Below, in pieces: positions 18,661 to 47,389 of a stretch of DNA of 48,351 nucleotides. The notes beneath the pieces are model-generated. The model was not told the origin of the DNA. It worked only from the letters and a program-made list of their open reading frames with translations, and searched no databases. The position numbers were made by a program, and so were the translations under genes. Position 1 is the first letter of the stretch. Every line of letters begins with the position of its first letter. The stretch comes from a virus (Duplodnaviria > Heunggongvirae > Uroviricota > Caudoviricetes): IMG/VR virus record IMGVR_UViG_2654588181_000001. One strand, 5' to 3'.

Positions 18661-19221
18661 TTATTCTTCCTGCTTAATAAATCGGGATTCCTGGAGCGCC
18701 TGAAGCGCAAAATTAATCTCGTCTTCAATAATGCGTTCGATCTCCCTGGCTGTTTTGCCTTCACAACGGGGAGCTGCTCTTGGAGCAATACTAAATAAGC
18801 GGCTACGCAATTCATTAGCTGCCAGAAATGCATCATCCCTGACCGCATCTTTAGCGATGAGAGAGCCTTCCTTTTCTTCAAATTCAAGGCGTTTCAGCTT
18901 TGCCTGATAAATTTTTTCTGCGGTCTTAGCCTTGTTGAATTGCACTGCAACACCGGAAGTACCACCAGCTAATCCGGCATCATCAGCGGGTAACTCTGGT
19001 TGTTCCGAAGATATCCCATGCCCTCTTTTTCCATTTTCAGCAGATACCTCACGACCAACCTGTCGGCTCGCTTCATAAGCCGCACTAGCTTTATCAAAAT
19101 CCAGCTTGCCGCTTTTCAGCACTGGAATGCGACCGGAACGACAGAGCTTCGTAACCATTGCCGGAGAAATACCTTTTCGGCGGGCAAACTCTGACTTACT
19201 GACGATGGCCATTACTTGCAA
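18661..19221 (-). CDS. terminase small subunit, Nu1-like (HTH)
   Basis: 186-aa ORF immediately upstream of terminase large subunit; N-terminal HTH. Confidence 0.55.
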   Translation of the reverse strand: MQVMAIVSKSEFARRKGISPAMVTKLCRSGRIPVLKSGKLDFDKASAAYEASRQVGREVSAENGKRGHGISSEQPELPADDAGLAGGTSGVAVQFNKAKTAEKIYQAKLKRLEFEEKEGSLIAKDAVRDDAFLAANELRSRLFSIAPRAAPRCEGKTAREIERIIEDEINFALQALQESRFIKQEE

Positions 19222-19802
19222 CCATTAGCAAGATACTGAACAAATCCCTCATGCGTTTCATGCGCGTCGTGGTACTGACGATAAACATCCAGCAACAATG
19301 CAATTTCCATATCCGTCGCGGGAATACGTTCTTTATCAATAGCCAGGTACTTAATTTGAACAACAGGGGAAGAATTATCGTCTTCTTCCTGCGGCTGTTC
19401 ATCGCTTAACATTTCGTCAAGCTCTGCATCATTAAACCCAAGCAGATCAATATCAAAATCATCATCCATTAACGCTTTGACTTCTTCGGCCAGAAGCTGC
19501 ATATCCCAGCCAGCATTTAAGGCCAGCTTGTTATCTGCAATCCTGTAAGCCTTCTTCTGTTTTTCAGAAAGGTTACTCAACCGAATCGCTGGAACTTTAT
19601 CCATTTCCAGAATTTCGGCTGCTGCAAGCCGCCCATGCCCCGCAATCAGTTCATTCTTTTCATCGATCAGCACAGGATTAGTGAAACCGAACTCACGGAT
19701 ACTGTTCACCAACTGTTCAACTTGCTCATCTGAATGAGTCCGTGAATTTTTGGCGTATCTGAGCAGCTTACCGACTGGTAAATATTCGATTTTTAGAGCC
19801 AT
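19212..19802 (-). CDS. ParB-like N-terminal domain protein (paralog 1)
   Basis: 196-aa ORF; ParB/Srx-type motif ...LIDEKNELIAGHGRLAAA...; clear paralog of 22469..23092. Confidence 0.7.
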   Translation of the reverse strand: MALKIEYLPVGKLLRYAKNSRTHSDEQVEQLVNSIREFGFTNPVLIDEKNELIAGHGRLAAAEILEMDKVPAIRLSNLSEKQKKAYRIADNKLALNAGWDMQLLAEEVKALMDDDFDIDLLGFNDAELDEMLSDEQPQEEDDNSSPVVQIKYLAIDKERIPATDMEIALLLDVYRQYHDAHETHEGFVQYLANGCK

Positions 19803-20359
19803 TTTTTAACCGCCATAACACAACAGGTTAAAGAAAACTGTTTAACTTATTGATACTAAAAGAGAAAAATGACGATCTTTTTACTCATAAAAAATCACAC
19901 AAACCAGCATAATCATCTGATTTTATTAAGTTTTTATAAGTAAAAAGGATCTTGAGATGGTGTTTTGGTTAAAAGATTGGATGTATTTGCATGATTTATA
20001 ACGATTTTTATCAGAACAACATCACATTGGTTAAAGATCTGCGCGTATCTTGATGATCTAAAAGAAAATTTTCTACTTTCTTTTTACCAGCACAAATACA
20101 GCAAAAAATCACGTTTTCCCGATATTTTTCAATGAGATGAGTAAATTTCTTTTACCGCAACTTTTAACCTAACTTTTTTCACGTTTAGCTAGCCGAACAT
20201 CGGGGTTCGAATGACCCGCATCCAACGCTTTTGGCCAGAAGGACCCAATTCTGCCGGACGATGAAACGATGCTCGTGCTCCCCCACAGACAGCCAGCGAG
20301 CGACGCTACAGAACACAGTGAATACACTCTGCATAACAACACCATCAACCACACGATGA

Positions 20360-21079
20360 TTAACGAGAGAAGGTCTTAGAAAGAATGTCATCAATAGCCT
20401 TTGTGACTTCATCAGCAAACGCATCCTCACCAGCACGCAGCGCCACGCCATGCCAATCAAGACGCTGCGAATAGTTAGGTTGCTGGATAAACGTAAGGAT
20501 CAACGTAGGACGCCGCCCAACGCGCTGCCAGACGCCTGGTTGAAGCGGGTTACTTGTACCAGGTCGAACAACAAAAAACTCCGTAGGCTTGCCCTGACGG
20601 CGATTTTGATGCGCATCTCGCTGAACTCTTAGGCCAGATAAGACCTGCTGTAATTGCCCCCGCGAAATATTCCCGTATTTGTCCAGCTTTGCGCCGGGAC
20701 CAGGAGCAAGCTGCCAGCCGTTAGGCAAATATCCACCAGCCCTTAGCGCCCCTTCTGAGCGTTTGTACTGTCGTTGGCCACCTTCGATTTGCGGAGTCAA
20801 CGTTACAGGGGCTGGCGTTCCTCCCCATTCACGAGCATACACAATGGCTGTAGGATCACTCTTCTTTGCGGCCAAAACGTAAGTAGAGTTCTGAATCCAC
20901 GGCGTGGGCCTGTCAAATACCCGATTAATTTCATTCTTAATCGCAGCCTGAGAAGCCTTTGCCGTTCTGGTTGCCGCAAGCGCCATTGCGAACGGCAATT
21001 CGCGTTCTTCAAGGCGCTGGAGTTGTCGTTGAATATCCTGAGAAGAAAAATCCATCTTTATCTCAATTCTGTCAGCCAC
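20360..21079 (-). CDS. hypothetical protein
   Basis: 239-aa ORF embedded between ParB-like genes. Confidence 0.5.
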   Translation of the reverse strand: MADRIEIKMDFSSQDIQRQLQRLEERELPFAMALAATRTAKASQAAIKNEINRVFDRPTPWIQNSTYVLAAKKSDPTAIVYAREWGGTPAPVTLTPQIEGGQRQYKRSEGALRAGGYLPNGWQLAPGPGAKLDKYGNISRGQLQQVLSGLRVQRDAHQNRRQGKPTEFFVVRPGTSNPLQPGVWQRVGRRPTLILTFIQQPNYSQRLDWHGVALRAGEDAFADEVTKAIDDILSKTFSR

Positions 21080-21095
21080 CAGCGCCTCCTACACA

Positions 21096-22475
21096 CTACT
21101 TAATCAACGGCCGGAAAGCCGCCAGCACATCATCAGATCGTCCGATTGTTGAACCACCAGGCAACGGCAACTCAAACTCAAAACGAACAGCTTTCTCCAG
21201 ACTCGCCCAACTAAGGGAATCATCGTTAATGACGTGCAAATACCAGCTCTTACAGTTGAATATTGACCGCTTAATCCTGAAACCATGTACACGACACAAC
21301 TGCTTCACTTCCTCATCAGAGTGAAACTTCTGGTAAAACCAGTGCCCCTTCCGGTACAACGCGGTAAAACCGTTATGATCAATAAAATAAAGCCGGCTTT
21401 TGGAACTCGCCGCTTGTGTCTGCTTCAGGACTGTTTCCAGCTCTCCACGGCTACGGCCAGAAAAGAATATTGACCCACCAGCTTTACACAGCCCTTTCAG
21501 AACCGTCAGAACGGACCATTCAGCCTCGACACTATCGACCGAGTTCAAAACGCTATCGCAAATCACGTAGTCGTAACGCCCTCGCGTTTTTAAGTCGTCC
21601 ACCAGCGTATCAATCATCCGGTTTGTTGCGGTCCTATCCAGAGTGTTTCCAGCGCCCTTACGGCGGAAAAGCTCAAGATCATGCAGGTTATATCCCTTTG
21701 CCCTGAGCATTCGCGCGTAGTCTCCCTGACCCGAACCAAAATCAATTCCTCTTGGCGTCTTGGCAATGATCGGGAGGATCAACGACTCATACAGGTTTGA
21801 TTTCAGGCTGCCACCATTACGCAACCGCATAAGCTGCGCATACGTCTGGATGTATGTTGTTTTCTCCAGATGAGAATACTCAAATACACCATAAGTTTTA
21901 TTCAGATAACTTTGGTATTTTTCCTTCTCAACATCAGGGATCACAAACACCGTTAGCGGTGTGCGCGTCATCTTCGCTGCTAATGCATACTGAGCACAGT
22001 GAATAACCTCGCCAGACTGCGTAGCAACACAACCACCCCACGGACCATACTTGATAACCAGTTCCGCTATGTTCTTTCGAACATATGCCATTTTCGCGCG
22101 CATATTGCCTGAAATCTGGCTTGCCGATACCTGAACAAAACCATGCTTATCTCCCAGACCTGACACCCTGCAACGCTCATCTCCGCTATCAAAATCCGTT
22201 CCGTTATGCAGTTGGTTAAACCGTACTTCGTCGTATACCGTCGTTTCACAGGGCAACACATACACCGCAGCACGCGTTATTCCCAACTTACGTAGCGCCT
22301 TCGTCCTTTGGTGTCCCGCCACCAGCAAATCGCCGCGCACTATCAATGGCTTCACAAGCCCCAGCTCCCTGACGCTTTCCGCCAGCCTCGCAAGATCATC
22401 CTCACCGATAAAACGCGGGTTATATTCCGCGCCGCGTAGGTGCGTTATGTCGTAATTGAGATGAAGCATCAGCAC
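21096..22475 (-). CDS. ParB-like N-terminal domain fused to SAM-dependent methyltransferase domain
   Basis: 459-aa ORF; N-terminal ParB-like segment (LVAGHQRTKALRKLG); class-I MTase motif I-like IDFGSGQGDYARML and DYVICDSVLN. Confidence 0.65.
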   Translation of the reverse strand: MLMLHLNYDITHLRGAEYNPRFIGEDDLARLAESVRELGLVKPLIVRGDLLVAGHQRTKALRKLGITRAAVYVLPCETTVYDEVRFNQLHNGTDFDSGDERCRVSGLGDKHGFVQVSASQISGNMRAKMAYVRKNIAELVIKYGPWGGCVATQSGEVIHCAQYALAAKMTRTPLTVFVIPDVEKEKYQSYLNKTYGVFEYSHLEKTTYIQTYAQLMRLRNGGSLKSNLYESLILPIIAKTPRGIDFGSGQGDYARMLRAKGYNLHDLELFRRKGAGNTLDRTATNRMIDTLVDDLKTRGRYDYVICDSVLNSVDSVEAEWSVLTVLKGLCKAGGSIFFSGRSRGELETVLKQTQAASSKSRLYFIDHNGFTALYRKGHWFYQKFHSDEEVKQLCRVHGFRIKRSIFNCKSWYLHVINDDSLSWASLEKAVRFEFELPLPGGSTIGRSDDVLAAFRPLIK

Positions 22476-23092
22476 ACCTCCCCAGCCAGCAATGCGGATA
22501 CAAATCCGATATAGCTGCCATTATCATCAACATAACGAGATACCGCGCAGTCAAAACGATCCGCTTCCTCATCCGTTGCCGGGATTTTATGACCTCCAAA
22601 TGACAGGTACTGAACTTTTACGCCTGATTTGGCCTCATCCTTCTCAAATGGGATATCCATACCCTCTGTGTCATCGTAGACCGCCGCACTCAATAAGTTA
22701 TCCAGTTCGCGCTGAGTAAAACCAATTGAGTCCAGAGCAAAATCATCGGCCGCAAGATCTGCAAGTTCCGCGCTTAACAACTCTTCATCCCAACCAGCAT
22801 TCAGCGGAATACGGTTGTCGGCCAGACGATATGCCTTCTTCTGATTCTCCGTTAGCCCTTCCAGAACAATGCAGGGAACGTCATCCATCCCCAACTGAGT
22901 GGCCGCAGCAATTCGACCATGACCAGCAATTACAACGTTGTTCTCGTCTATCAGGATCGGATTAGTCCATCCGTACTCCTGTATGCTGGCAACAATCTGA
23001 TCTACCTGCTCCACGGAGTGTGTGCGAGCGTTCTTTTCATAACCAATCAACACAGAAAGTGGTAAAGAAACCACATTAAGATGTTTTGTCAT
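22469..23092 (-). CDS. ParB-like N-terminal domain protein (paralog 2)
   Basis: 207-aa ORF; ...ILIDENNVVIAGHGRIAAA...; about half identical to 19212..19802 by eye. Confidence 0.7.
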   Translation of the reverse strand: MTKHLNVVSLPLSVLIGYEKNARTHSVEQVDQIVASIQEYGWTNPILIDENNVVIAGHGRIAAATQLGMDDVPCIVLEGLTENQKKAYRLADNRIPLNAGWDEELLSAELADLAADDFALDSIGFTQRELDNLLSAAVYDDTEGMDIPFEKDEAKSGVKVQYLSFGGHKIPATDEEADRFDCAVSRYVDDNGSYIGFVSALLAGEVC

Positions 23093-24425: not shown

Positions 24426-24499
24426 CCCATGTTCTCCTTTGTCTGGATGTAAAAAAGCCCCGGCAATTGCCGAGGCTCGTTGTTCGTTATCGTTACGGT

Positions 24500-24700
24500 T
24501 TAATGCTCGCGTCGTCCGGCGACAACTTCGGATTTGTATTTCAGGTCGCCCAGCAAGAATTGCAGTTTAAGCATCTTTGCCGCCGTGTAGTTCCCTGATT
24601 CCACAACCTCTTTCATGAGGTCATAAACGGCCGCAACATCATCAGCCAGGAACTCTTTGCGTTGCTGCTCAGTCGCACGTTTGAAGGAAATACGCATCAC
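24500..24700 (-). CDS. hypothetical protein
   Basis: 66-aa ORF overlapping stop of upstream gene. Confidence 0.4.
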   Translation of the reverse strand: MMRISFKRATEQQRKEFLADDVAAVYDLMKEVVESGNYTAAKMLKLQFLLGDLKYKSEVVAGRREH

Positions 24701-24966
24701 TCATCATCTCCTGCCGCACATACAACCTCACAAAAAACATCAGCGGAATGTTTCTTTTTGAATGAATGGCGCTCAAAACCGCACTCAATATCAGGCGCAA
24801 AAACATCCACCACATACGGTCTTTCAGAATGTTTGTTTTCCCAACGATAAACCGTAGTGACGTTGAAATGTTTTAACGCTTCACGGAACTCAACGCTGCC
24901 CGTCAGGTTTTTTGAGGTCAGGTATTGCAGGAGGTTTTTTACTACTTCACGGTCTTGTACTTTCAT
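24697..24966 (-). CDS. hypothetical protein (first gene after promoter-leader cassette copy 1)
   Basis: 89-aa ORF; ATG preceded by CCGGAGATAACCCG leader. Confidence 0.5.
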   Translation of the reverse strand: MKVQDREVVKNLLQYLTSKNLTGSVEFREALKHFNVTTVYRWENKHSERPYVVDVFAPDIECGFERHSFKKKHSADVFCEVVCAAGDDE

Positions 24967-25083
24967 CGGGTTATCTCCGGTTTAACCAGGGCGGGTATCG
25001 CTCGGTTTCGGGTATAACCATAGGAAATTTTTTCCCACCTGTAAAGCACCTTTTATATAAATATATAATTATATAATTCTATG
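24967..25083 (-). promoter_or_regulatory. repeated promoter-leader cassette, copy 1
   Basis: Near-identical to 31746..31865 and 41210..41330; -35 TTTACA, 17-nt spacer containing GGAAAAAATTTCC, -10 TATGGT, ~60-nt conserved leader, GGAG then ATG. Confidence 0.6.
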
Positions 25084-25973: not shown

Positions 25974-26049
25974 TGGTGGCCCCTACCGGATTTGAACCGA
26001 TGACCGTGCGATTATGAGTCGCCTGCTCTAACCACTGAGCTAAGGGGCC
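25974..26049 (-). tRNA. tRNA with CAU anticodon (Ile2/lysidine type or Met), CCA encoded
   Basis: 76-nt cloverleaf: GGCCCCT acceptor stem, D-arm TAGCTCAGTGGTTAGAGCA, anticodon loop CTCATAA, T-loop GGTTCAAATCC, 3' CCA; first ~42 nt match my recollection of E. coli ileX. Confidence 0.8.
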
Positions 26050-26218
26050 ATATTTGATTTGTTTGTCTGGTGTGGCGCCGCGCACGAAAATCCCAGCCAA
26101 TAAATTCAGGATTTTTGGGCGCGGCGGCATATCAGACAAACATGGTTGATGCGTGCGCCCATGAGAAAAGCGCATAGAATGTTGTAACTATATATTTATA
26201 TAATTATAGAAATATATA

Positions 26219-26428
26219 TTACTTTCGGCAGTTGATTTCCCATGCCCTGTTATGAGCCAGAATATCTTTCTTTGTCTGGCGGTCCATAACATCGATGTCG
26301 TGATCAGTCAGGTAGATGGGCTTTACCCAATCACAGGCGGTATCAACCACCACCGGGACGCTTCCACGACTCCCGCAGCTCGCGATCAACATCGTCATCA
26401 GCCATATGGTTAACACTCTGCTGTACAT
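26219..26428 (-). CDS. o-spanin (Rz1-like lipoprotein), overlapping in alternate frame
   Basis: 69-aa ORF with lipobox-like LIASC; overlaps 3' end of Rz-like gene. Confidence 0.5.
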   Translation of the reverse strand: MYSRVLTIWLMTMLIASCGSRGSVPVVVDTACDWVKPIYLTDHDIDVMDRQTKKDILAHNRAWEINCRK

Positions 26429-27838: not shown

Positions 27839-27868
27839 AAAAAAAAAGCCCCGCCGAAAAGGCAGGGC
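27839..27868 (-). terminator. rho-independent terminator upstream of lysis genes (tR'-like)
   Basis: Minus-strand GCCCTGCC-TTTTC-GGCGGGGC followed by T9. Confidence 0.55.
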
Positions 27869-28561
27869 TTCATAAAGCAACAAATTACGCGGTAATCGCT
27901 TAACGCAGTTTTACTACGTTAAATGAAACACTACACCCAGTTACCACCTAAAACAAGGTTTTCCCATAAAAAAACCTTCATATTGTGGTTAACCGATCAA
28001 TAAAAAAACAATACTTAACTTTTGACCAACCGAACATCCCGACCAGGACTTCCATAATATTCGCCGATATGCCACTGCTTAAGTTGAGTAATCTTCTCCA
28101 ACTTAACGCCCATAGAGTCCAGTTTCTGCCATGTTTTCGGTTGTATGTGCTTCATTACCCGCTCTGAATATCTGAATACTGCTCGTAAGCGCATGGCTTC
28201 TCACTACAGCTTATATAAGTGGTTTTTCCAGCGGTTTTGCGCCGCGCTGCGCTTATCTTTGACTCCCTCTCTGGCAATTCCAGAATATAAGTACAACACC
28301 ACACGGCGGTTGCTAACTCTCAACCACTGGCTGGGATAGCAACGTCTGTATACACGGGAAATAAGCATCTTTGCTTTACGGTTTTTCATCATTTTGCTCT
28401 CCTGCGTTTCTTTGCTGCACGCCGTGCAGCTGCAATACCGGTATGGCGGCGCTTTGGTGCCGGGATGATGTTGTCAGCCATCAGGACATGCGGCTTTGCA
28501 ATTAGCGCAGAAGCCCAAAAACGAGTCGGGTATGGTAACAAGCCGATACATGCCACACGCA

Positions 28562-30322: not shown

Positions 30323-30621
30323 GCCACAGCCCCTCTCAACGGCTTAACTTTGGCTAATAAGGTGTTAAACAACATGGAGTTAGGATTCATGCCAAATGGC
30401 AATTCCGGTTTAGCGGAGTAGTACAGGCAACCATTTATTTTCCTGGTTGTTATCTGTCCTTCGGCAACCATGCTTCTCAGTCTGCAACGCATAGAGTTCT
30501 GCGACACACCAATGTGCTCCGCGATTACGTCCACTTTTGAACATGGGTGATCGGTCAGGAAATTAATCACATCTTGGGGGTTAATAATTTTGCGTTTCAT
30601 TGTCGAGGCGTCCTTATACAT
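30319..30621 (-). CDS. small HTH DNA-binding protein (first gene of 4-gene operon); start may be second ATG at 30600
   Basis: 100-aa ORF; AT-palindrome motif and terminator hairpin immediately upstream. Confidence 0.5.
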   Translation of the reverse strand: MYKDASTMKRKIINPQDVINFLTDHPCSKVDVIAEHIGVSQNSMRCRLRSMVAEGQITTRKINGCLYYSAKPELPFGMNPNSMLFNTLLAKVKPLRGAVA

Positions 30622-30677
30622 TTATATAAATATATAATTCTATATACGGCGGGAGACATCCCGCCGTAGGCTTACTG

Positions 30678-31745
30678 TCAGGCTTTCAATAGCGATTCTT
30701 TCAGATATCGGGCATCAGCCAGGGCGTTTGGAGTAATCTTGCGAACCCATGCATTACGGGTTGGACTCCACTTAAAGGCGCGTGATTTAAGCAGCGAACG
30801 AATGTTTGCCTCTGGTTTGCCAGGGAAATAAAACAGGATGCGGTTATCCTCTGGATCTATCTCCATAGAAAAGCCGTCGTATTCTTCGCGCTGTGCTCCT
30901 GTTACAGACTTGACCGATTCAAGCTCCTTAATACGGCTCTGTAGTCGTTTGATTTCGGCGTTATTGTTGCTCAGTGCGTATGAAGGGAATCCGATGCGCC
31001 CACAGAAATCTCCGGCCAGTAACTCTTTGGCTTCGCTTTCTGTAAACCTGAGATCGATTAATGCAGAAAGCTGCTGTATTTGGTCTTTTTTGTATTTGCG
31101 AATGGCCTTATTTGCGGCCTTCATTTTGACGTGTGACTTCATGCAGCCTTGCAGCTTACGAAGCAACTTAAATAGCGCATCAGGATCATCAGACGAAATT
31201 CCATTACGACCAACACCTGCGGCTTTGCTCTCGTAGTGTGATGCTTTACTTTCGCATTCAACAAACGCTTTTCTGAATAACGCATCAGCTTTAGACAAAC
31301 GGCGGCGATGGCCTTTCGCGCTATAATGGTCAACTAAAATCGGCTGGCCTAACGGGATCACATCCAACAGGTCATGCGCTCGCTTATGCGCTACCGCACC
31401 TTCTTTTCTGGCTTTTTCTGCACGAGCAATATATCGGGCAAGACGCGCGTTCTGGCGTTCCTGATAGGTGTTTACGTAATCATCTCCGCGCTGCTGCTGT
31501 TCAAGCCATGCTTTGCGCAGATCTTCTGTTACGTCCACCAGCTCCGCAGGGATACAACCAGTTTGGGCTTCATAAGAGTAACCATCCTCATAGATACGCC
31601 CATCGTCTTCAACAAAGAAAAAGGTTTCGTGCTCATCGCTTTTGACCATACGACCATTAACATGGCGTAATAGGTAGCCAGTATCAGTGCTTAACAGGCT
31701 GTTAGGGTTGTTGATCCAGTCAGAAATAATTACTTGTTTATTCAT
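30678..31745 (-). CDS. conserved hypothetical protein (possibly DUF3560-like)
   Basis: 355-aa ORF directly driven by promoter-leader cassette copy 2. Confidence 0.55.
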   Translation of the reverse strand: MNKQVIISDWINNPNSLLSTDTGYLLRHVNGRMVKSDEHETFFFVEDDGRIYEDGYSYEAQTGCIPAELVDVTEDLRKAWLEQQQRGDDYVNTYQERQNARLARYIARAEKARKEGAVAHKRAHDLLDVIPLGQPILVDHYSAKGHRRRLSKADALFRKAFVECESKASHYESKAAGVGRNGISSDDPDALFKLLRKLQGCMKSHVKMKAANKAIRKYKKDQIQQLSALIDLRFTESEAKELLAGDFCGRIGFPSYALSNNNAEIKRLQSRIKELESVKSVTGAQREEYDGFSMEIDPEDNRILFYFPGKPEANIRSLLKSRAFKWSPTRNAWVRKITPNALADARYLKESLLKA

Positions 31746-31865
31746 CAGATTTCTCCGGTTTAACCAGGGCGGGTATCGCTCGGTTTCGGGTATAACCTTA
31801 GGAAATTTTTTCCCACCTGTAAAGCACTTTTTATATAAATCTATAATTATATATTTATAGATTTT
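31746..31865 (-). promoter_or_regulatory. repeated promoter-leader cassette, copy 2
   Basis: Same ~115-bp element as copies 1 and 3; -10 variant TAAGGT; leader ...CCGGAGAAATCTG ATG. Confidence 0.6.
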
Positions 31866-31914: not shown

Positions 31915-32292
31915 TTACTCTCTTCGCTTTTTCAAATAGTCGACAACATACGCCCTGGCTTTTGCCAGCTTCCGGCGATACTGTCTGAGACTAAGAGAAA
32001 GGGCGTGGGCTTTATCAATATGCGGTGCATTTATGTCGAGGCCCCGAATCTCCCACGCCCCGTATTCAATTCGGACAACCAGCGCCGCAGTCTCATCAAC
32101 TACCGTGAGGGCCGTCACCGCTCCCTCGATACTAGTTTCCAGTGAGTCATTTGGTGCGCCGCCCCCTCCGGTAAACTGGCAACGCGTAACCATCATCATT
32201 TCTAACATCGACGCGAAACCGCTACGGGCGTTGCAGCCATTGCGCACCCACAGCGCCCATAGCTCAAACAAGCTATCCAGATCGCGTCTCAC
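31915..32292 (-). CDS. hypothetical protein, possible Q-like late antiterminator
   Basis: 125-aa ORF ending 50 bp upstream of cassette copy 2; weak resemblance (LFELWALWVRNG) to a short Q family recalled from phage 21/933W; not verifiable here. Confidence 0.3.
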   Translation of the reverse strand: MRRDLDSLFELWALWVRNGCNARSGFASMLEMMMVTRCQFTGGGGAPNDSLETSIEGAVTALTVVDETAALVVRIEYGAWEIRGLDINAPHIDKAHALSLSLRQYRRKLAKARAYVVDYLKKRRE

Positions 32293-34284: not shown

Positions 34285-34402
34285 ACCACGATATGTGGTA
34301 TTAAAACCACATATCGTGAGTTTTTCAATGGGCGAAACAAAAAATAACCTTCTATTTGTGGTCCACCTCTCGTCTTACCATGTGAAAACCACTAAATGTG
34401 GT
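34285..34402. promoter_or_regulatory. divergent promoter/operator region with ACCAC-N5-GTGGT operators
   Basis: ACCACGATATGTGGT (34285..34299), ACCACATATCGTG (34306..34318), GTGGTCCAC (34357..34365), ACCACTAAATGTGGT (34388..34402). Confidence 0.65.
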
Positions 34403-34439: not shown

Positions 34440-35096
34440 ATGAAAAGCAACGACGAGAACATCAAGAAAGAAATAGGTCTGCGCATTCAGACTCTACGGA
34501 AACAATCCGGCATGACTGCCGGAGATCTCCAGCAAGTCACTGGAATAGGCTTAAGCACCTTGCAGAACTATGAGGCCGGATTAAGACAACCATCTATACC
34601 TGCCATCAAGAAAATCGCGCACGCCCTAAAAGCATCAGCGCCTTACATCGCGTGCTTAACAGATAACCCGTTCCCACCCCAGAATACTAACGCTCCTGTT
34701 ATTCCTGGGCTTGTAGCTATAAAAAATGACATAGCATCGCACGCCGGAGAAAAGCCTGTGCTGGCGATAGAACAGGAGATTTTACGAAGCAAGAACATCA
34801 ACCCATCGTCTCTGTCAGTTCTCCAGAGCAACGATGAGTTAATGTCACCAACAATATCCCCTGGCTCCCAAGTCCTGATTAATACAGACGATACAGAGAT
34901 TCATGAGGGGATCTATGCCCTTGAAGACAGAAATGGCCTAGTTGTTTTGAGGCACTGTAGAGTCATACCGGGTGACAATGCTGTTATGCTGTCAACCGAA
35001 AGGGATGCTGAAATGAACACTAAGCATCTGAATAACGAGGAATTTAAGCGTTATAAAGTTCTTGGCCGCGTAGTTAGTGTTGTCAACTGGTTATGA
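34440..35096 (+). CDS. CI-like repressor (HTH plus S24/LexA-like autocleavage domain)
   Basis: 218-aa ORF; N-terminal HTH; C-terminal ELMSPTISPGSQVLIN resembles S24 Ser-nucleophile region. Confidence 0.8.
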   Translation: MKSNDENIKKEIGLRIQTLRKQSGMTAGDLQQVTGIGLSTLQNYEAGLRQPSIPAIKKIAHALKASAPYIACLTDNPFPPQNTNAPVIPGLVAIKNDIASHAGEKPVLAIEQEILRSKNINPSSLSVLQSNDELMSPTISPGSQVLINTDDTEIHEGIYALEDRNGLVVLRHCRVIPGDNAVMLSTERDAEMNTKHLNNEEFKRYKVLGRVVSVVNWL

Positions 35097-35563: not shown

Positions 35564-35713
35564 CTGCAAGCGGGCTAACGCCCGCTTATATGATTATAGA
35601 TTTATATAATTATATAAAACGCTTTTCATCCGCCAAAAAGTTGGTTATGCTTACCTCGTTCTATAAATATAGATTTATAGAATTATATAATCAAACACAT
35701 GGAGTCTCGACAA

Positions 35714-36367
35714 ATGACTATCTCTGTAGGTATTTTCAACGGAAAAGGTGGCGTAACCAAATCAACAATTGCCCGTGCTTTAGCAGTTGCTTATGCAAAG
35801 GCTGGCTGGAATGTATGCCTGATCGATATGGATGTGCTTAACGGAACGGTAACGCGTTGGGTACAACGCAGAATGGCCAACAATATCGAACCAGCAATCG
35901 CGGCGCAGCCGTGCGGCACACCATCACAAGTCCAGAAAATCATCGAATCAGAAGTATACGACCTGGTTATCGTTGATGGCGGTGCCTACGCATCTGAATC
36001 AGTACCGAAGCTATCTGAATTTCTGGATATGGTTATTTTGCCAACCCGATTCTCTACCGATGACCTGGAAACCACCGTTAACACTGCTCACGGCATCGTT
36101 AAAAAGGGTGTACCAATCAAGAAAATTTGCATGGTGTTTTCCGGCGCGGCTGAAAACGAAGCTGACTATATTGAAGCCCAAGAGTACCTGGCTAATACGC
36201 CATACTTTGTTGTCGATAAGTACATTCCCCACAAGCCAGCTCTGAGCAAAGCTCAGGATAAGGGCTTAAGCCTCATTGAATGCTCATACGTTGCGCCACG
36301 CAAAAAGGCAGACGACGTTATTCAGGGGATTATCAACCAGCTTGAGGCTCTGACTACTGCCGCGTAA
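35714..36367 (+). CDS. parA: ParA-family partition ATPase
   Basis: Deviant Walker A GIFNGKGGVTKST at N-terminus; ATG at 35714 with GGAG 10 nt upstream. Confidence 0.85.
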   Translation: MTISVGIFNGKGGVTKSTIARALAVAYAKAGWNVCLIDMDVLNGTVTRWVQRRMANNIEPAIAAQPCGTPSQVQKIIESEVYDLVIVDGGAYASESVPKLSEFLDMVILPTRFSTDDLETTVNTAHGIVKKGVPIKKICMVFSGAAENEADYIEAQEYLANTPYFVVDKYIPHKPALSKAQDKGLSLIECSYVAPRKKADDVIQGIINQLEALTTAA

Positions 36368-36410
36368 TATATAATTATAGTTTTATAGATTTATATAAGA
36401 GGGGATACAC

Positions 36411-36659
36411 ATGGCCGCACCATCAAAACCACCAAAGAAGAACAGCAAAGGCGTACCGCCATCGATCGAACAACCGCAAGTTTTCGACCCGACTGAAACG
36501 CCAACCAGAACCAAATCAGGTGGGGCTCAAATGGCGTTTAATGTCGACCCTGAATTTAAACGCGAGTACAAAACGTTCGCCAGCTCAATGGATATGTCAT
36601 TGAAAGAAGTGCTGACAAAGTCTTTTGAGTTACTCAAGGCTCAATACAACCAGAAGTAA
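36411..36659 (+). CDS. small centromere-binding partner (ParG-like RHH)
   Basis: 82-aa ORF directly after parA; disordered basic N-terminus then MAFNVDPEFKREYKTFA RHH-like segment. Confidence 0.55.
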   Translation: MAAPSKPPKKNSKGVPPSIEQPQVFDPTETPTRTKSGGAQMAFNVDPEFKREYKTFASSMDMSLKEVLTKSFELLKAQYNQK

Positions 36660-36880: not shown

Positions 36881-36903
36881 TAAAAAAGGCCCCCGAAGGG
36901 GCC
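36881..36903 (-). terminator. rho-independent terminator
   Basis: GGCCCC-CGAA-GGGGCC hairpin followed by T-run on minus strand. Confidence 0.5.
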
Positions 36904-36909
36904 TAATCG

Positions 36910-37029
36910 CTACTTGCTGCTAATGTTTATCGTCACATTCAGAGCGTTATCAGTAATCTTCCAACCCTCCCCATGTGGCGTAAACAAAGCTCCAGTAACA
37001 ACGATAAAAATACACATACAGTATTTTTT
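36910..37029 (-). CDS. small hydrophobic peptide (40 aa) with own SD and terminator
   Basis: MKKYCMCIFIVVTGALFTPHGEGW...; AAGGG 8 nt upstream of ATG; terminator immediately downstream. Confidence 0.35.
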   Translation of the reverse strand, partial: KKYCMCIFIVVTGALFTPHGEGWKITDNALNVTINISSK

Positions 37030-37785
37030 CATTGTGTGGCCCTTACAGGCCGTTTCACGGCATCCCCACCGACGAAAACAACGCGAGAGCAAGCACGGCT
37101 GCTTGTGCTTGCATGTACGGCAACAGGAAATCCTCCCCTAAAGTCGGTGCCCGGGTGCGAATCGGCGGGAAGGTCCACAGGTATTTTACGATTATTTTAA
37201 GATTAGTAATAGGAAAGAAATTAAACGAAAAAAACAGTTTATTTTCACAAAATCAGTAACCTACCCACAATCTGTGAGTTTGCTGACACAACAAGAACCA
37301 CAATTTTTTGATGTATAATAGTGGACTATTATTACCTTTTGAGTAAAATCAATTTGCTGCTTGTGCTTGCGTGGTTGTTTATACAACAACGTAATGCTGA
37401 AAGGACCGCGAATCCGATCAGCACGAAAGAACCGTCCTCAATAGGGCGGTTTTTTTGTTTCTGCCTACCAATAAACCCACGCTATGTGGTTGTCTCTGTT
37501 AAAATCCCGCCGTATTGACATGAATGCGCCATTGGTGGACACTTTCCGAGCCGTAGCAAAATCTACGGTCGGGATTAGCCTCCTGAATAACACGATGGCG
37601 CATACCGCGTTAGCGGTTTTTTTATGCGTAGAGCACTGTTACGCCCAAATTATGGTGGGTCGTACAGGGGCGGAGAAATCCGCGCCGGTTCGTCATTGTG
37701 TCCGGTAAGGCTAACCCTGTACGGCTCACCACCATTTGATTAGCCTCGAATGGCGGTGATAGTTCCATATACTGGAGATATCACA

Positions 37786-37977
37786 ATGACAAACCTACCC
37801 CATGACTATTACGTCAACCTCGTAAAGATCCTTCTCAAGAAAGCCTCATACGCCGATAAATTCCGCCTGGCTGAAATCATCGAGCGCGAAGCTATGCGCA
37901 TCGCCAGCAACGATAACGCTGTTTCTGACGCAAAAATCTCCCTCGTAACCAAAGTAGTTATGGGAGGTGCAAAATGA
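37786..37977 (+). CDS. small ORF overlapping antirepressor start (icd-like position)
   Basis: Stop overlaps ant ATG (ATGA at 37974..37977); start uncertain. Confidence 0.35.
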   Translation: MTNLPHDYYVNLVKILLKKASYADKFRLAEIIEREAMRIASNDNAVSDAKISLVTKVVMGGAK

Positions 37978-39116
37978 AAACGCTTCCGACCGTTAACACC
38001 CTACAGCCTATCCTGCATAACCAGATCCCCGTTATCACTAGTGAACTTCTGGCGCAGTTATACGGAACAAAAATCAAAAACATTTCTGATAACTTTCTGA
38101 ACAACACGACGCGATTCGTAGCCGGAAAGCATTACTTTAAAATTGAAAAAAACGAATTACGCGAGTTCAAGAACAGACCCGAAACAATCGGGTTAGTTGG
38201 TAAAAATGCCCGCTCCCTAATTCTCTGGACCGAACGCGGGGCTGCACGTCACGCTAAAATGCTCGAAACCGATCAGGCGTGGGATGTATTCGAACGGCTG
38301 GAAGACTGCTATTTCAGCCAGAACGCGCAAACGGCCGCGACCGTAACCGTCTCGCCAAACAATGCTCGTGAGGTTGTCGATACGCTCAACGCCAAACCGA
38401 TGTTTTACATTAAGGTGTGCAATAACGAGCCACTCACAACCTCAGCCGATGTTGCCCAGGCATTCAGCACCACAAACAATTCCATCGTTATGGCCATCGA
38501 TGCGCTACGCATTCCTCGCACGGCTGCGGCGCGTCACTTCTTTAAAGAGCAACGACCGTTGGAAGGAAGCGACCGCGAAATAACAATCTATCGCATGACA
38601 AAAGACGGATTTACCTTGCTCATGGAGAGCATCGACGGTCCAGGCGTGAAAGATATCAAGCTGGCCTACATTGAAGCCTTTAACGCTATCAGCAGCGTGT
38701 TAAAAACACAGTACGAGCGTGATCTGGCTAAACGACTGTACCAGGAAAAAACGATTATCCGCGCGGCAACAGAGCATAATCGGCTATTAACGGAACCGAA
38801 CTACAGGAAGGAACTAATCAAGGAGTTTGACAAGGCAACAGGGAAAACCAAAGCGGCGCTAAATCTGCCAGCAATGACTCAGGAAAATGTGATATCAGCC
38901 TTACTTCTTGATCTGCTCAGAAACGCCAGAGCACTTATCAGCTTTGACGAAAACCTGAATCCTCAGCTCAAGCTACTACCACCGACAGGCAAAGTAGTCG
39001 ACCAGGCTGATCACAACAGCATACTCAGCGTACTGGATGCAAACCTGCCAGCCAGGACACTACAGGATCTGATAAAAACATGTGCTGATAAGCTGGCACA
39101 GAAAAGCAGACCATAA
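37974..39116 (+). CDS. antirepressor (Ant-like)
   Basis: 380-aa ORF; N-terminal KilA-N/ORF6N-like segment; operator-like CCCACGCTATGTGGT upstream at 37477..37491. Confidence 0.7.
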   Translation: MKTLPTVNTLQPILHNQIPVITSELLAQLYGTKIKNISDNFLNNTTRFVAGKHYFKIEKNELREFKNRPETIGLVGKNARSLILWTERGAARHAKMLETDQAWDVFERLEDCYFSQNAQTAATVTVSPNNAREVVDTLNAKPMFYIKVCNNEPLTTSADVAQAFSTTNNSIVMAIDALRIPRTAAARHFFKEQRPLEGSDREITIYRMTKDGFTLLMESIDGPGVKDIKLAYIEAFNAISSVLKTQYERDLAKRLYQEKTIIRAATEHNRLLTEPNYRKELIKEFDKATGKTKAALNLPAMTQENVISALLLDLLRNARALISFDENLNPQLKLLPPTGKVVDQADHNSILSVLDANLPARTLQDLIKTCADKLAQKSRP

Positions 39117-40198: not shown

Positions 40199-40299
40199 TG
40201 CATCCTCTACCTTTCCCTAGATATTCAATAAATTAGACATAGCCACTCACGACAAAATAAGATGTATTAACAATCCAATCTTTAGGCTTTAGGTAAAAA

Positions 40300-40725
40300 A
40301 TGAGTTCATCTGCTTTTGTCACCGTGGTCACTGGTGTAAGTGTTTTTGTTCTAGGCCAACTCATCGTCAAAGGAGCTATTGAGCCTTACATTTCATTCAG
40401 GGAACAACTAGGGAAAATATCCAATCTGTTATTGTGTAACCAAGCAAAAATAGTGAATCCTGGCTCGAACTTAAAGCCAGAAATCATTCATGATCTAAAA
40501 GATTCCGCAGCACAGTTAATGGCGAAATATTCCACTTTACCTTTCTATATCAAAAAGTTACATATCGGCTTTCGTCTTGTTCCATCAGCCACCGAGATTC
40601 TTGGGGCAGCTCGAAATTTGAACTATATAGCGTCAATACATGAAGGTAAGACTGGGGAGAATCCATCTAAGCATCTCGAAGATATTGGCCATATGCTCAA
40701 AATACCAACTACCTATTCAAGCTAA
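40300..40725 (+). CDS. hypothetical membrane-anchored protein (AT-rich moron)
   Basis: 141-aa ORF with N-terminal TM helix; visibly lower GC than flanks. Confidence 0.45.
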   Translation: MSSSAFVTVVTGVSVFVLGQLIVKGAIEPYISFREQLGKISNLLLCNQAKIVNPGSNLKPEIIHDLKDSAAQLMAKYSTLPFYIKKLHIGFRLVPSATEILGAARNLNYIASIHEGKTGENPSKHLEDIGHMLKIPTTYSS

Positions 40726-40828
40726 CCCAATGCAAGTTATCGGCTTGCCCCACAATAAGTTATCTATCTTCAAACACCCCCTATATTAACACTCGCAAAG
40801 TGTCATTTTGACACTTTGCGCATTGTGT

Positions 40829-41209
40829 TTACTTAACGAGGAATAAAAATGGTTTATTGTTAGGCGGTGTAATCGGGGCTGGCTCGCTTTTGCTCATGCG
40901 ATCAGTGTACCAGGCCAACTCCTTGTCAAAGTAAGCCTGATTAAAATAGGCCATGAATGTAGTTTCAAATCCATAACGACCGCTAATACGCAGCATCTGA
41001 TTGCCGTTCTCTGTTTCCAGATATACCTGGGCACGCTCCTGATTCTCCTTCAGCCAAGTTAAAGCCTCATCGCACGAGGACACACGATACTCATCATCGT
41101 AGCCGTCATCGATGCGGCTTGAAGAAGAACGGCAAATCACGCCAACAGAACCAGCCAGGATAGTTTGAATTTTAAGGAAAGCGTTTTTGCGGATTTTAAT
41201 CATGCTCAT
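40829..41209 (-). CDS. hypothetical protein (driven by cassette copy 3)
   Basis: 126-aa ORF; ATG preceded by CCGGAGATAACCCG. Confidence 0.5.
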   Translation of the reverse strand: MSMIKIRKNAFLKIQTILAGSVGVICRSSSSRIDDGYDDEYRVSSCDEALTWLKENQERAQVYLETENGNQMLRISGRYGFETTFMAYFNQAYFDKELAWYTDRMSKSEPAPITPPNNKPFLFLVK

Positions 41210-41330
41210 CGGGTTATCTCCGGTTTAACCAGGGCGGGTATCGCTCGGTTTCGGGTATAACCATAGGAAATTTTTTCCCATCCGCAAAGCACTTTTTATA
41301 TAAATCTATAATTATATAATTCTATGAGCA
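41210..41330 (-). promoter_or_regulatory. repeated promoter-leader cassette, copy 3
   Basis: Same element as copies 1 and 2; -35 variant TTTGCG; preceded by terminator 41326..41358. Confidence 0.6.
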
Positions 41331-41358
41331 CAAAAAAGCCCCTTTGCAACAGGGGCTT
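41326..41358 (-). terminator. rho-independent terminator after antitoxin gene
   Basis: AAGCCCCT-loop-AGGGGCTT followed by T-run on minus strand. Confidence 0.6.
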
Positions 41359-44644: not shown

Positions 44645-45199
44645 TCAATGATTCCCAGCCGGAAACCTGCGGTAAAGCGTGGATAAGGTAACATCGAAGA
44701 TAATCGCTATCCGCTTACGTGAAACACCATTCGCAATAAGCCTTCCGATCTGTTCCCATTGCTCTGGGGCCAATTTTGAGCGGCGTCCTCCTATCCTGCC
44801 ATTAGCCCTTGCCACCGCCAATCCTGCACGCGTTCTTTCAATCATATTTTCCCGCTCCATCTCTGCGACTGCACTCAGCATCGTGTAGGCAAAGCGGCCA
44901 ATTGAAGTGCTAATTTTTATCCCTTCCGTAATCGAAATAAACTCAATGTTGTTTGATAAAAAATGGTTAAGTAAATCAACAAGATGAATCAGAGAACGCC
45001 CCATTCGATCCAGCTTCCAGACAATAACCGTATCGCCCGGCCGTAACACCTTCAGTAGCTTATCAAGCCCTGGTCGTTTTGATTTAGCACCGGATATTTT
45101 ATCTTCAAAAATCCGGTCACATCCTGAACTCCTGAGCGCCTCCAGTTGTAATTCCAAATTCTGGTCAAAAGTTGACACCCTCGCATAACCATATTGCAT
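44645..45199 (-). CDS. serine DNA invertase (Gin/Cin/Pin/Hin family)
   Basis: 184-aa ORF; N-terminal YARVSTFDQ with catalytic Ser, C-terminal HTH; adjacent to inverted repeat. Confidence 0.9.
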   Translation of the reverse strand: MQYGYARVSTFDQNLELQLEALRSSGCDRIFEDKISGAKSKRPGLDKLLKVLRPGDTVIVWKLDRMGRSLIHLVDLLNHFLSNNIEFISITEGIKISTSIGRFAYTMLSAVAEMERENMIERTRAGLAVARANGRIGGRRSKLAPEQWEQIGRLIANGVSRKRIAIIFDVTLSTLYRRFPAGNH

Positions 45200-45272
45200 A
45201 CTTTCTAAACCGCGATTGTTGCTAAAAGCGGGAAAAAATATCGTTTAGACGACACAGAGGCAATTCGCAAAA

Positions 45273-45297
45273 ACCTCGGTTTACAGGAAACGGTAAA
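45273..45297. repeat. inversion crossover site, left inverted repeat
   Basis: ACCTCGGTTTACAGGAAACGGTAAA = exact reverse complement of 48327..48351 and of 1..25. Confidence 0.8.
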
Positions 45298-46297
45298 CAA
45301 GGCTGGTAACGCCGTGCAAAAGACAGGCGATACCTTGTCCGGTGGACTTACTTTTGAAAACGACTCAATTCTTGCATGGATTCGAAATACCGACTGGGCA
45401 AAGATTGGATTTAAAAATGATGCCGACAGCGATACTGATTCATACATGTGGTTTGAAACAGGCGACAACGGCAATGAATATTTCAAATGGAGAAGCAAAC
45501 AAAGCACCACAACAAAAGACCTGATGAATCTTAAATGGGATGCTTTGTCTGTTCTTGTTAAAGCCCTTTTCAGCAGTGAAGTAAAAATATCGACAGTCAA
45601 TGCACTGAGGATATTTAATTCATCTTTTGGTGCCATTTTTCGTCGTTCTGAAGAATGCCTGCATATCATCCCTACACGAGAGAATGAGGGGGAAAATGGT
45701 GATATAGGGCCACTACGCCCCTTTACGCTTAATCTCAGAACAGGTCGCATAACTATGGGGCATGGTCTGGATGTTACAGGAGATATATTTACAAACCGTT
45801 TTTTAATTAACAGCAGTACAGGCATGTGGATTCATATGCGTGACCAGAACGTTATTATGGGACGTAATGCGGTATCCACTGATGGTGCTCAGGCATTGCT
45901 TCGTCAGGACCATGCCGACCGCAAGTTCATGATAGGTGGATTGGGAAATAAGCAATTTGGCATCTACATGATTAATAACTCAAGGACAGCCAATGGCACC
46001 GATGGTCAGGCGTACATGGATAATAACGGGAATTGGCTTTGCGGCTCGCAAGTTATTCCCGGCAACTATGGCAATTTTGATTCCAGATATGTGAAAGATG
46101 TTCGACTTGGTTCACAGCAATATTATGGAGTGAACAACTGGCAAACATGGAATTTCCAGTGCCCGTCAGGTCATGTATTGTCTGGTATTAATGTTCAGGA
46201 TACAGGGTCCAACTCTGCCGATAATATAGCGGGCGTTTATTACAGACCCGTTCAAAAGTATATAAATGGCACCTGGTATAATGTAGCGAGCGTTTAA
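45273..46297 (+). CDS. alternative tail-fibre C-terminal cassette (silent in this orientation)
   Basis: Open frame through the left repeat (…[25 protein letters not shown]…) with no upstream start; becomes fused to the constant part after inversion. Confidence 0.7.
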
Positions 46298-46298
46298 T

Positions 46299-46826
46299 AT
46301 GATGCACTTAAAGAACATAAAAGCGGGTAACGCTAAAACACTGGAACAGTATGAGTTAACAAAGAAACACGGAGTTATCTGGCTTTACTCTGAGGACGGA
46401 AAAAACTGGTATGAGGAAGTGAAAAACTTTCAGCCAGACACAATAAAGATTGTTTACGATGCAAATAATATTATTGTCGCCATCACTAAAGATGCCTCCA
46501 CGCTTAACCCTGAAGGTTTTAGCGTCGTTGAGATTCCCGATATAACAGCCAATCGTCGTGCCGATGATTCAGGAAAGTGGATGTTTAAGGATGGAGCTGT
46601 AGTTAAACGGATTTATACGGCAGACGAACAGCAACAACAGGCCGAATCACAAAAGGCTGCGTTACTTTCCGAAGCTGAATCAGTCATCCAGCCGCTGGAA
46701 CGTGCTGTCAGGCTGAATATGGCAACAGACGAGGAACGCACACGACTGGAAGCATGGGAACGCTACAGTGTTCTGGTCAGCCGTGTGGATACGGCAAAGC
46801 CAGAATGGCCACAAAAACCAGAGTAA
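46299..46826 (+). CDS. tail fibre assembly chaperone (silent-orientation copy)
   Basis: 175-aa [17 protein letters not shown]...; paralog of 46854..47387. Confidence 0.75.
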
Positions 46827-46853
46827 AATTAAGGCCCGATAGCGGGCCTTCTC

Positions 46854-47387
46854 TCATTCTGGTTGTTCGGGAAACGTTACTGGCAGGCTGGAGGTGTCTG
46901 TAGATTCGACTTTCTGCGCATAGAGCATCCACTCGGTTAATTTTTGTTTATTCTCGTCGGAAATGATGCCCAGCCGTAACTGTGAGTCCCATAGCTGGGT
47001 TTTATCCCTGACGAGCTGTAGCAAGCTTTGCTTTTCATTTTCCACCTGTTGCCGCTGCTCTTCCTCGGTATAAGTTCGCTTTATCACTACGCCATCTTTG
47101 AACATCCATTTACCCGAAATATCAGCCCGGCGATTTGCTGTAATATCAGGTAATTCAACGACGCTTGCGCCTTCTGGATTAATTGCTGAAACATCCTTTT
47201 CAATACAAATAATAACGCCGTTGTGGTCATAGACCATTTTCAACGTATCAGGCTGAAAGTTCTTTTGTTCCTCATACCAGTTTTTCCCATCCTCTGTATA
47301 AAGCCATTTGATGTTAAATTGTTTCGTTAGCTGGTATTGCTCTTTTGTTTTAGGGTTGCCAGCAGTAATATTTTTTAAGTGCATCAT
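46854..47387 (-). CDS. tail fibre assembly chaperone (expressed-orientation copy)
   Basis: 177-aa ORF MMHLKNITAGNPKT...; directly follows fibre C-terminal cassette. Confidence 0.75.
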   Translation of the reverse strand: MMHLKNITAGNPKTKEQYQLTKQFNIKWLYTEDGKNWYEEQKNFQPDTLKMVYDHNGVIICIEKDVSAINPEGASVVELPDITANRRADISGKWMFKDGVVIKRTYTEEEQRQQVENEKQSLLQLVRDKTQLWDSQLRLGIISDENKQKLTEWMLYAQKVESTDTSSLPVTFPEQPE

Positions 47388-47389
47388 AA

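Follow-up and report, generated by a model that had tools for sequence, protein, structure and literature searches.

The three near-identical cassettes described here are best supported as copies of a par-type promoter, operator array included, that seem to have been fused to a fixed 5′ untranslated region (UTR) and ribosome-binding site in front of three transcription units. It is somewhat probable that they work as Par-controlled, PR′-like portable promoter modules derived from the par promoter of the same replicon. The window, which is the whole stretch of DNA analysed (48,351 nucleotides), is a phage-plasmid of ~48 kb in the family of the E. coli ATCC 25922 plasmid and the Yersinia phages vB_YpM_39-44. 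It is ~98% identical to the 48.5-kb plasmid of ATCC 25922 and to the phages vB_YpM_39, vB_YpM_41, and vB_YpM_44. The window encodes RepA, a small ParA, a HigB/HigA toxin-antitoxin pair, and a CI-like S24 repressor, and its virion genes are lambda-like for the head and P2-like for the tail.

How common is the cassette? It was found in 74 of 5,426 complete E. coli genomes, nearly always on a plasmid, at a median of three places per carrying genome. Cassette-bearing relatives also occur in Salmonella and Klebsiella aerogenes. The distribution is narrow in PLSDB and in the E. coli collection, and an IMG/VR pattern scan, a DUF3560-based locus search, PLSDB, and a phage collection gave only the E. 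coli and the Salmonella/Klebsiella cassette types. A literature search found no publication on these cassettes or on the phages vB_YpM_39/41/44. A 28-kb conjugative cfr plasmid (NZ_CP037908, positions 1444-2866) has a HigBA module and a 47-bp cassette stub with 91-96% identity to the phage-plasmid. An independent cassette in conjugative plasmids was rejected, since this stub is part of the shared HigBA module and is cut by IS26; to judge from that arrangement, it is an exchanged fragment. Because the module and the cut stub are shared with the phage-plasmid, exchange between the plasmid types is indicated. Another plasmid (NZ_CP024829, 32 kb) is a deletion derivative of the phage-plasmid: the immunity, par, early, and lysis regions are gone, and cassette 3 is the single copy left.

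The three copies, each ~117 bp in length, lie on the minus strand at 24967..25083 (cassette 1), 31746..31865 (cassette 2), and 41210..41330 (cassette 3), and can be aligned without ambiguity from the AT-rich block through to the start codon. A 62-nt core (GGAAAAAATTTCCTAWGG...CCGGAGA) has three exact matches in the window and none in 100 dinucleotide-preserving shuffles. As the original prediction stated, every copy ends at the ATG of an ORF: 24697-24966 (89 aa), 30678-31745 (355 aa), and 40829-41209 (126 aa). The three products are indeed unrelated, having no BLASTP similarity and belonging to different PHROGs. The 355-aa product is a DUF3560 protein; Pfam, PHROGs, and PADLOC were uninformative for the cassette-driven genes. 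The common layout is a four-box array, a sigma70-type promoter (TTTACA-17-TANNGT), a 5′ UTR of ~44 nt, and one or two small genes with an intrinsic terminator.

In cassette 1, the array (25082-25051) is followed by the -35 element TTTACA (25045-25040), the -10 element TATGGT (25022-25017), a predicted start at ~25010, a 5′ hairpin (25007-24984), the Shine-Dalgarno (SD) sequence GGAG (24978-24975), and the ATG (24966). Cassette 2 has its array at ~31860-31829, TTTACA at 31823-31818, TAAGGT at 31800-31795, a predicted start at ~31788, the hairpin at 31785-31762, the SD sequence at 31756-31753, and the ATG of the DUF3560 gene at 31745. In cassette 3, the array (41325-41294), TTTGCG (41288-41283), TATGGT (41265-41260), and a predicted start at ~41253 precede the ATG (41209) of the 126-aa gene, which is followed by a gene for an RstR-like HTH protein (40198-39926, minus strand). 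A segment between these two genes (40207-40783), which encodes a 141-aa ORF on the opposite strand, is missing from the ATCC 25922 plasmid and vB_YpM_41.

The promoter elements were all found as claimed, with a 17-nt spacer in every copy; TTTGCG is the -35 of copy 3 (TTTACA in copies 1 and 2) and TAAGGT is the -10 of copy 2 (TATGGT in the others). A generic promoter scan gave 9/12 for copy 1 (TTTACA-17-TATGGT) and for all three copies of the Salmonella relative, whereas copies 2 (TAAGGT) and 3 (TTTGCG) were below the threshold. Among 29 variants, the -10 element is TATGGT, TAAGGT, or TAGTGT; T-12, A-11, and T-7 are fixed and the changes are confined to tolerant positions (TANNGT). This pattern, together with a leader core conserved far above the flanking genes, supports the view that the cassettes are promoter-leader modules. 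The palindrome GGAAA-N3-TTTCC in the spacer is not strictly kept in the relatives (GGATAATATTTCC, GGACAATATTTCC) and was rejected as an operator. A leader peptide was rejected as well, since a 16-codon ORF starting from the ATG in TATGGT of copies 1 and 3 is destroyed in copy 2 by TAAGGT, and lies upstream of the likely transcription start. Finally, a role as a mosaic junction or recombination boundary, like T4 PeSL, was rejected because the similarity between the window and vB_YpM_41 is broken at cassette 1 by nothing more than a deletion of 241 bp that removes the 89-aa gene.

The AT-rich upstream part of the cassettes appears to be the repeat array cognate to the plasmid's own partition operon, a point that the original prediction missed. 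The palindrome TATAATTATA that it described there is present, but as part of a regular array of four tandem 8-bp units, which read ATAGAATT, ATATAATT, ATAGATTT, and ATATAAAA in gene orientation. Each unit consists of a TATA box and a 4-bp AT spacer. When the cassette was compared with the window by short-word BLAST, three further matches came up around parA. There, arrays occupy three places: upstream of the parA promoter, between the promoter and the parA ATG, and in the gap between parA and an 82-aa gene. On the plus strand, the par promoter region (35588..35692) comprises an array (35588-35619), a -35 element TTTTCA (35623-35628), a 17-nt spacer, a -10 element TATGCT (35646-35651), and a second array (35661-35692). 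It is followed by parA (35699..36367), encoding a small Walker-type ParA ATPase of 222 aa with CbiA/ParA/MipZ domains, the four-box gap array (36369..36400), and the 82-aa gene (36411..36659), all on the same strand.

The cassette promoters and the par promoter align through the array, the -35 element, the spacer length, and the -10 element, and their arrays share 10-mers as well as the unit structure. Eight arrays, versus none expected by chance, were detected in the window both by a regular-expression scan and by a scan for lag-8 periodicity. Three of them belong to the cassettes and three to the par operon, and the other two have no promoter. One promoterless array (30620..30645, minus strand) lies past a hairpin (30666-30647, minus strand) following the stop codon of the DUF3560 gene and ahead of a 93-aa gene (ATG at 30600), and the other (26190..26221, plus strand) lies between the last lysis gene and a tRNA gene. 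The five array positions outside the par operon are conserved in Salmonella. By this comparison, the arrays of the cassettes appear to be the same sites as the par arrays. Since the upstream element of each cassette is a par repeat array, control at initiation by the partition protein, which is predicted to be of the ribbon-helix-helix (RHH) type as described below, is the mechanism most strongly indicated.

Do the arrays follow the par operon in other replicons? Homologues of ParA with 34-46% identity were found on five unrelated plasmids (of Salmonella, Serratia, Vibrio, P. syringae, and Delftia). Each has a gene for a protein of 77-96 aa downstream of parA and arrays with an 8-bp period at the same three positions, and every system has its own box sequence (TATA, ACGA/TCGT, GCGTCA). 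A small ParA gene with a downstream small-protein gene is present in all homologous loci. A 28-kb conjugative plasmid, whose ParA and small protein are 45% and 39% identical, respectively, has TATA-type arrays at its par operon and also at two intergenic sites (type IV secretion operon). In more distant phage-plasmid relatives, which were found via a 125-aa protein discussed below, the dispersed arrays carry the flavour of the par arrays of their own genome. The array type is GATAT in L040 and L041 and TTAATTAAATAA in L038 and L042, and the dispersed arrays often lie directly upstream of -10-like hexamers or beside terminators. Thus far, in three lineages, the flavour of the arrays changes together with the par operon. 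Given that the upstream part of the cassettes is the array that flanks the par operon, the phage-plasmid of the window probably couples its segregation to phage gene expression. In addition, par-type arrays at L040 6331-6373 and 14880-14990 and at L038 9260-9400 were seen immediately past the Q-like gene and immediately ahead of a terminator and holin gene. In L038, TTGACA precedes the array, and ~75 nt that end in a strong terminator come after it, an order resembling lambda PR′-6S-tR′.

The 82-aa gene product is the proposed binder of the arrays. It is predicted to consist of a disordered N-terminal tail and a C-terminal RHH domain, like ParG. An AlphaFold (AF2) model has residues 1-40 disordered and two helices (47-59 and 62-81) with a pLDDT of 84-89. 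The single sequence gave no Pfam family and no PDB sequence match, and Foldseek found nothing with the model. A profile of eleven diverse homologues matched only RHH proteins in the PDB, with weak E-values from 0.009 to 1.1: 2KEL (0.009), 9KKD (0.03), ORF56, ArtA, and ParG (1P94, 1.1, with the RHH domain aligned). The parA/82-aa operon resembles the type Ib ParF-ParG systems.

It is known that ParG of TP228, a protein of ~76 aa with a flexible N-terminal tail and an RHH domain, represses parFG, and that the parH centromere and the OF operator consist of tetramer boxes with 4-bp AT-rich spacers at an 8-bp period (PMC3130281). The window shares with TP228 a small ParA, a small protein (in the window, with a predicted tail and RHH domain), and regular box arrays around the par promoter, where TP228 has autorepression. 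However, the box is ACTC in TP228 and TATA in the window, the TP228 arrays have 8 and 12 boxes solely upstream of parFG with no dispersed copies known, and the similarity of the ParG sequence to the 82-aa protein is marginal (E 1.1). In pSM19035, parS heptad arrays overlap the copS, delta, and omega promoters; the RHH ParB protein omega is a partition adaptor and a global repressor, and no fewer than four contiguous repeats are needed for function (PMC9499535). Here too, a putative RHH protein would meet arrays at several promoters, and every array of the window has four boxes. In contrast, pSM19035 comes from Gram-positive bacteria, its arrays consist of 7-10 heptads of 7 bp, and the targets of omega are plasmid-maintenance genes, not phage functions, and share no leader.

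The nearest precedent seems to be the linear phage-plasmid N15. Its SopB centromere sites IR1-IR4 are reportedly dispersed near gene Q and the late promoter p52: one site follows Q, another precedes p52, and terminators separate this promoter from the late genes. Late expression in N15 is said to involve an antiterminator of the Q type, and the dispersed SopB sites and partition proteins reportedly facilitate it. Both replicons are phage-plasmids in which sites for a partition protein (proposed sites, in the window) are dispersed beside phage regulatory elements. However, N15 has a type Ia SopA/SopB system with an HTH ParB, inverted-repeat sites, and a single late promoter, while the window has a type Ib-like system with arrays of four 8-bp units fused to a triplicated promoter-UTR module homologous to the par promoter. 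What would set the window apart is thus its putative RHH chemistry of type Ib and the presence of the module in three copies.

The Salmonella and K. aerogenes plasmids have the cassettes at the same three gene positions. Identity to the window is 88-91% for the Salmonella/Klebsiella cassettes, versus 72-80% for the flanking genes and 68% for the DUF3560 proteins. The lineages differ by at least eight substitutions that all three copies of a lineage have in common. The TATGGT/TAAGGT variants and the variants of the spacer between the SD sequence and the ATG are patchy among copies and plasmids. This pattern looks like the signature of gene conversion combined with purifying selection. In copy 1 of the ATCC 25922 plasmid (L019 32524-32658), the spacer between the SD sequence and the ATG is of the copy-2 type (AATCTG), a direct trace of gene conversion between cassettes.

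Is the leader itself the regulator? The original prediction placed shared post-initiation control in the conserved leader, either as a cis-acting RNA (a put-like antiterminator, a riboswitch-like element, or a protein-binding hairpin) or as a small-RNA target. I consider it unlikely that the leader is the functional heart of the cassette in this sense. The UTR is ~44 nt if transcription starts ~7 nt past the -10 element, not ~60 nt as had been estimated. A hairpin near the 5′ end, AACCG-A-GCG(loop)CGC-CC-UGGUU, is followed by an A-rich linker and the GGAG SD sequence 8-9 nt ahead of the ATG. A 36-nt core of the UTR is invariant among the 29 variants, and thus across lineages whose flanking genes are at 72-80% identity, except for two or three positions in the hairpin loop; the variable parts are the region around the start and the spacer between the SD sequence and the ATG. 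To judge from this conservation, the leader is clearly under selection, and since the core is far more conserved than the flanking genes, it is likely to be functionally constrained. The hairpin is the minimum-free-energy fold in seven of the eight variants folded, its variation is limited to the loop, and two independent loop changes add an A-U pair. These features and the terminators downstream of the cassettes speak for an RNA-level role.

Against such a role, the folding energy is only modestly below that of shuffled sequences (z -2.8, -2.6, and -0.7), and an outer stem of the leader is not conserved and lies partly upstream of the likely start. The predicted hairpin shows no compensatory change and no covariation, because the stems never vary. 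The cassette had no Rfam match at the gathering score, and at E up to 10 there were chance matches alone, outside the leader. Known cis-regulatory RNAs and a put-type antiterminator were rejected, as there is no covariance-model match and the UTR has one small hairpin with invariant stems; ~44 nt is too short for the two-hairpin put-type element (~65 nt). The window encodes ryfA-, isrK-, and C4-like RNAs according to Rfam. Their duplexes with the leader reach only the 5% tail of the background, which is nothing beyond chance, and no antisense match of at least 10 nt to the leader exists in the window outside the cassettes; the small-RNA target was rejected on these grounds. A 5′ stabiliser hairpin with an SD sequence explains the layout of the leader, but not its complete invariance. 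Of shared post-initiation control, antitermination is plausible, whereas an RNA family, a small-RNA target, covariation, and a pause element (see below) found no support.

The candidate antiterminator is the 125-aa gene product (31915..32292, minus strand), whose gene is the last of the early operon and lies just upstream of cassette 2. The AlphaFold model, made with 23 homologues, is confident for the C-terminal domain. The top Foldseek matches were structures of phage 21 Q (probability 0.87, TM ~0.5), but with an E-value of ~0.4; the longest structural alignment is also with phage 21 Q (Q21), and the set of longest alignments includes the antiterminators Q21 and AlpA. It is known that Q21 resembles region 4 of ECF sigma factors (10.1101/651190). 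The gene product has sub-threshold matches to Sigma70_r4_2 and Phage_antitermQ, no Pfam family, and a PHROG of unknown function. The NCBIfam model PA0613_fam covers its full length, also below the threshold (E 2.5e-4). PA0613 is the first gene of the P. aeruginosa R/F-pyocin cluster, and the match hints that it may also encode a small Q21-like regulator; the titles and abstracts of papers mentioning PA0613 indicate no function for it. The designation Q-like therefore stands insofar as the model has a sigma-region-4 fold with Q21 as the longest alignment, but no Q family was matched at the threshold. Cassette 2 does lie directly downstream of this gene in the window, but a 146-aa gene intervenes in the Salmonella/Klebsiella relatives. 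The relatives with 57-66%-identical homologues of the 125-aa protein have no cassette within eight substitutions.

Strong intrinsic terminators lie on the minus strand between the cassettes and the late genes, and they have counterparts in Salmonella. The terminator at 24455..24478 follows the 89-aa and 66-aa genes of cassette 1, and a second at 23779-23758 precedes the morphogenesis genes. These two break the five-gene operon that was originally assigned to copy 1, and they separate cassette 1 from a 23-kb morphogenesis cluster. A terminator at 27845..27871 lies downstream of the cassette 2 unit and immediately upstream of the holin/lysis genes. On the other side, a terminator at 41336..41358 ends the HigBA unit and shields cassette 3 from upstream transcription. 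A crude promoter scan found no other good promoter between cassettes 2 and 1 and the lysis and morphogenesis genes.

The gene context, namely the end of the early operon and the terminators before the late genes, fits a Q circuit. A -10-like pause element is one defining component of such circuits (10.1101/2024.11.20.624540). No NANNNT element was found in the ~30 nt after the -10 element of any variant; the closest is AGCGAT, which has G at position 2. The window resembles the lambdoid PR′-qut-tR′ late switch with Q, above all with that of phage 21, in having a regulator at the end of the early operon, a constitutive-looking sigma70 promoter, terminators, and lysis and morphogenesis genes. 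It differs in having three promoter copies versus one and genes between the promoter and the terminator, and in lacking a recognisable pause element and a Q-family match at the threshold. A PR′-like role with read-through via the 125-aa protein is plausible.

Alternatively, the cassettes could be late promoters that need the 125-aa protein at initiation as an activator or sigma-like factor, not as an antiterminator. I regard this alternative as quite unlikely: the -35 and -10 elements are already reasonable sigma70 elements and are homologous to those of the par promoter, which is expected to be active while the element is a plasmid; the 125-aa protein has its longest structural alignments with the antiterminators Q21 and AlpA; and the strong downstream terminators call for read-through. 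Very unlikely is a third reading, in which the cassettes are propagated mobile promoters or moron heads, gene-converted and giving constitutive accessory expression under no shared regulator, with the AT-rich part as an UP element: near-identical 5′ regions before non-homologous genes of one replicon are common (PMC3488235, PMC3575422), gene conversion is evident, every unit is a promoter, gene, and terminator, and in L040 the neighbours of this unit are present with neither cassette 2 nor DUF3560 between them, which looks like an insertion elsewhere in the family, but the arrays are strictly 8-bp periodic with exactly four boxes, occur also without promoters, and match par lineage by lineage, and the unit has a defined putative protein-binding array and a conserved UTR, is more conserved between lineages than coding DNA, and keeps its orthologous positions from E. 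coli to Salmonella and Klebsiella.

How may the Par-controlled modules work? I infer that the 82-aa RHH protein coats the arrays, as ParG does at parH/OF of TP228 and omega at the parS promoters of pSM19035. Its occupancy would set the activity of the promoters, by repression or by activation, and the arrays may double as dispersed centromere sites. While the element is maintained as a plasmid, each cassette would give a short transcript of one or two small genes that stops at the intrinsic terminator. Since only strong terminators part cassettes 2 and 1 from the lysis and morphogenesis clusters downstream, these two cassettes are the likely equivalents of lambda PR′. During lytic growth, the Q21-like 125-aa protein may allow read-through by antitermination. 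Gene conversion and purifying selection would keep the three copies near-identical. A bolder extension, which I think rather improbable, is that the 82-aa protein is a global regulator whose eight arrays couple segregation and copy number to the phage programme. The cassettes would then be bifunctional centromere-promoter-loading modules, in which Par occupancy gates both initiation and the loading of the 125-aa protein as a minimal Q21-like antiterminator with no canonical sigma-dependent pause element, perhaps via the invariant 36-nt leader. Candidate loading sites would be ATTTCCTA, GTGCTTTACAGG, and the 36-nt UTR core.

Several other features of the window were observed. Genes for ryfA-like (minus strand), isrK-like, and C4 antisense RNAs cluster at 36882-37736. 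A 75-aa gene and a gene for an ORF6N antirepressor-like protein (37974-39116) follow shortly downstream, and the whole looks like a secondary immunity region of the P1 immI type. A palindrome with 14-bp arms (34286-34319) is a probable operator; it is flanked by the CI-like repressor gene (34440-35096, plus strand) and by the early operon, which runs divergently. The tRNA gene between the lysis genes and an MT-A70 methyltransferase gene (25977-26049) probably has a CAU anticodon, because the annotations differ between Met (OR545054) and Ile (RefSeq). A gene for a Hin-like invertase adjoins opposed tail-fibre and tail-fibre-assembly genes at 44645-48223, which is likely to be an invertible host-range segment. 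Three proteins with ParB/Srx N-terminal domains are encoded ahead of the terminase genes (19212-23092).

Phage-plasmids must reconcile two lifestyles. This family is a common one: it is found in the E. coli reference strain ATCC 25922, in Salmonella and Klebsiella, and among phages that were isolated on Y. pestis. Its par promoter, with the operator array, appears to have been copied before three unrelated units, two of which head the routes to the lysis and virion genes. To my knowledge, crosstalk from plasmid maintenance to the lytic programme is known in detail for N15 alone. If the partition protein binds the cassettes, this family would be a second, mechanistically different (type Ib RHH) case of partition machinery controlling phage genes. 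The cassette would, moreover, offer a natural case of an insulated promoter-UTR-RBS part that can be reused.
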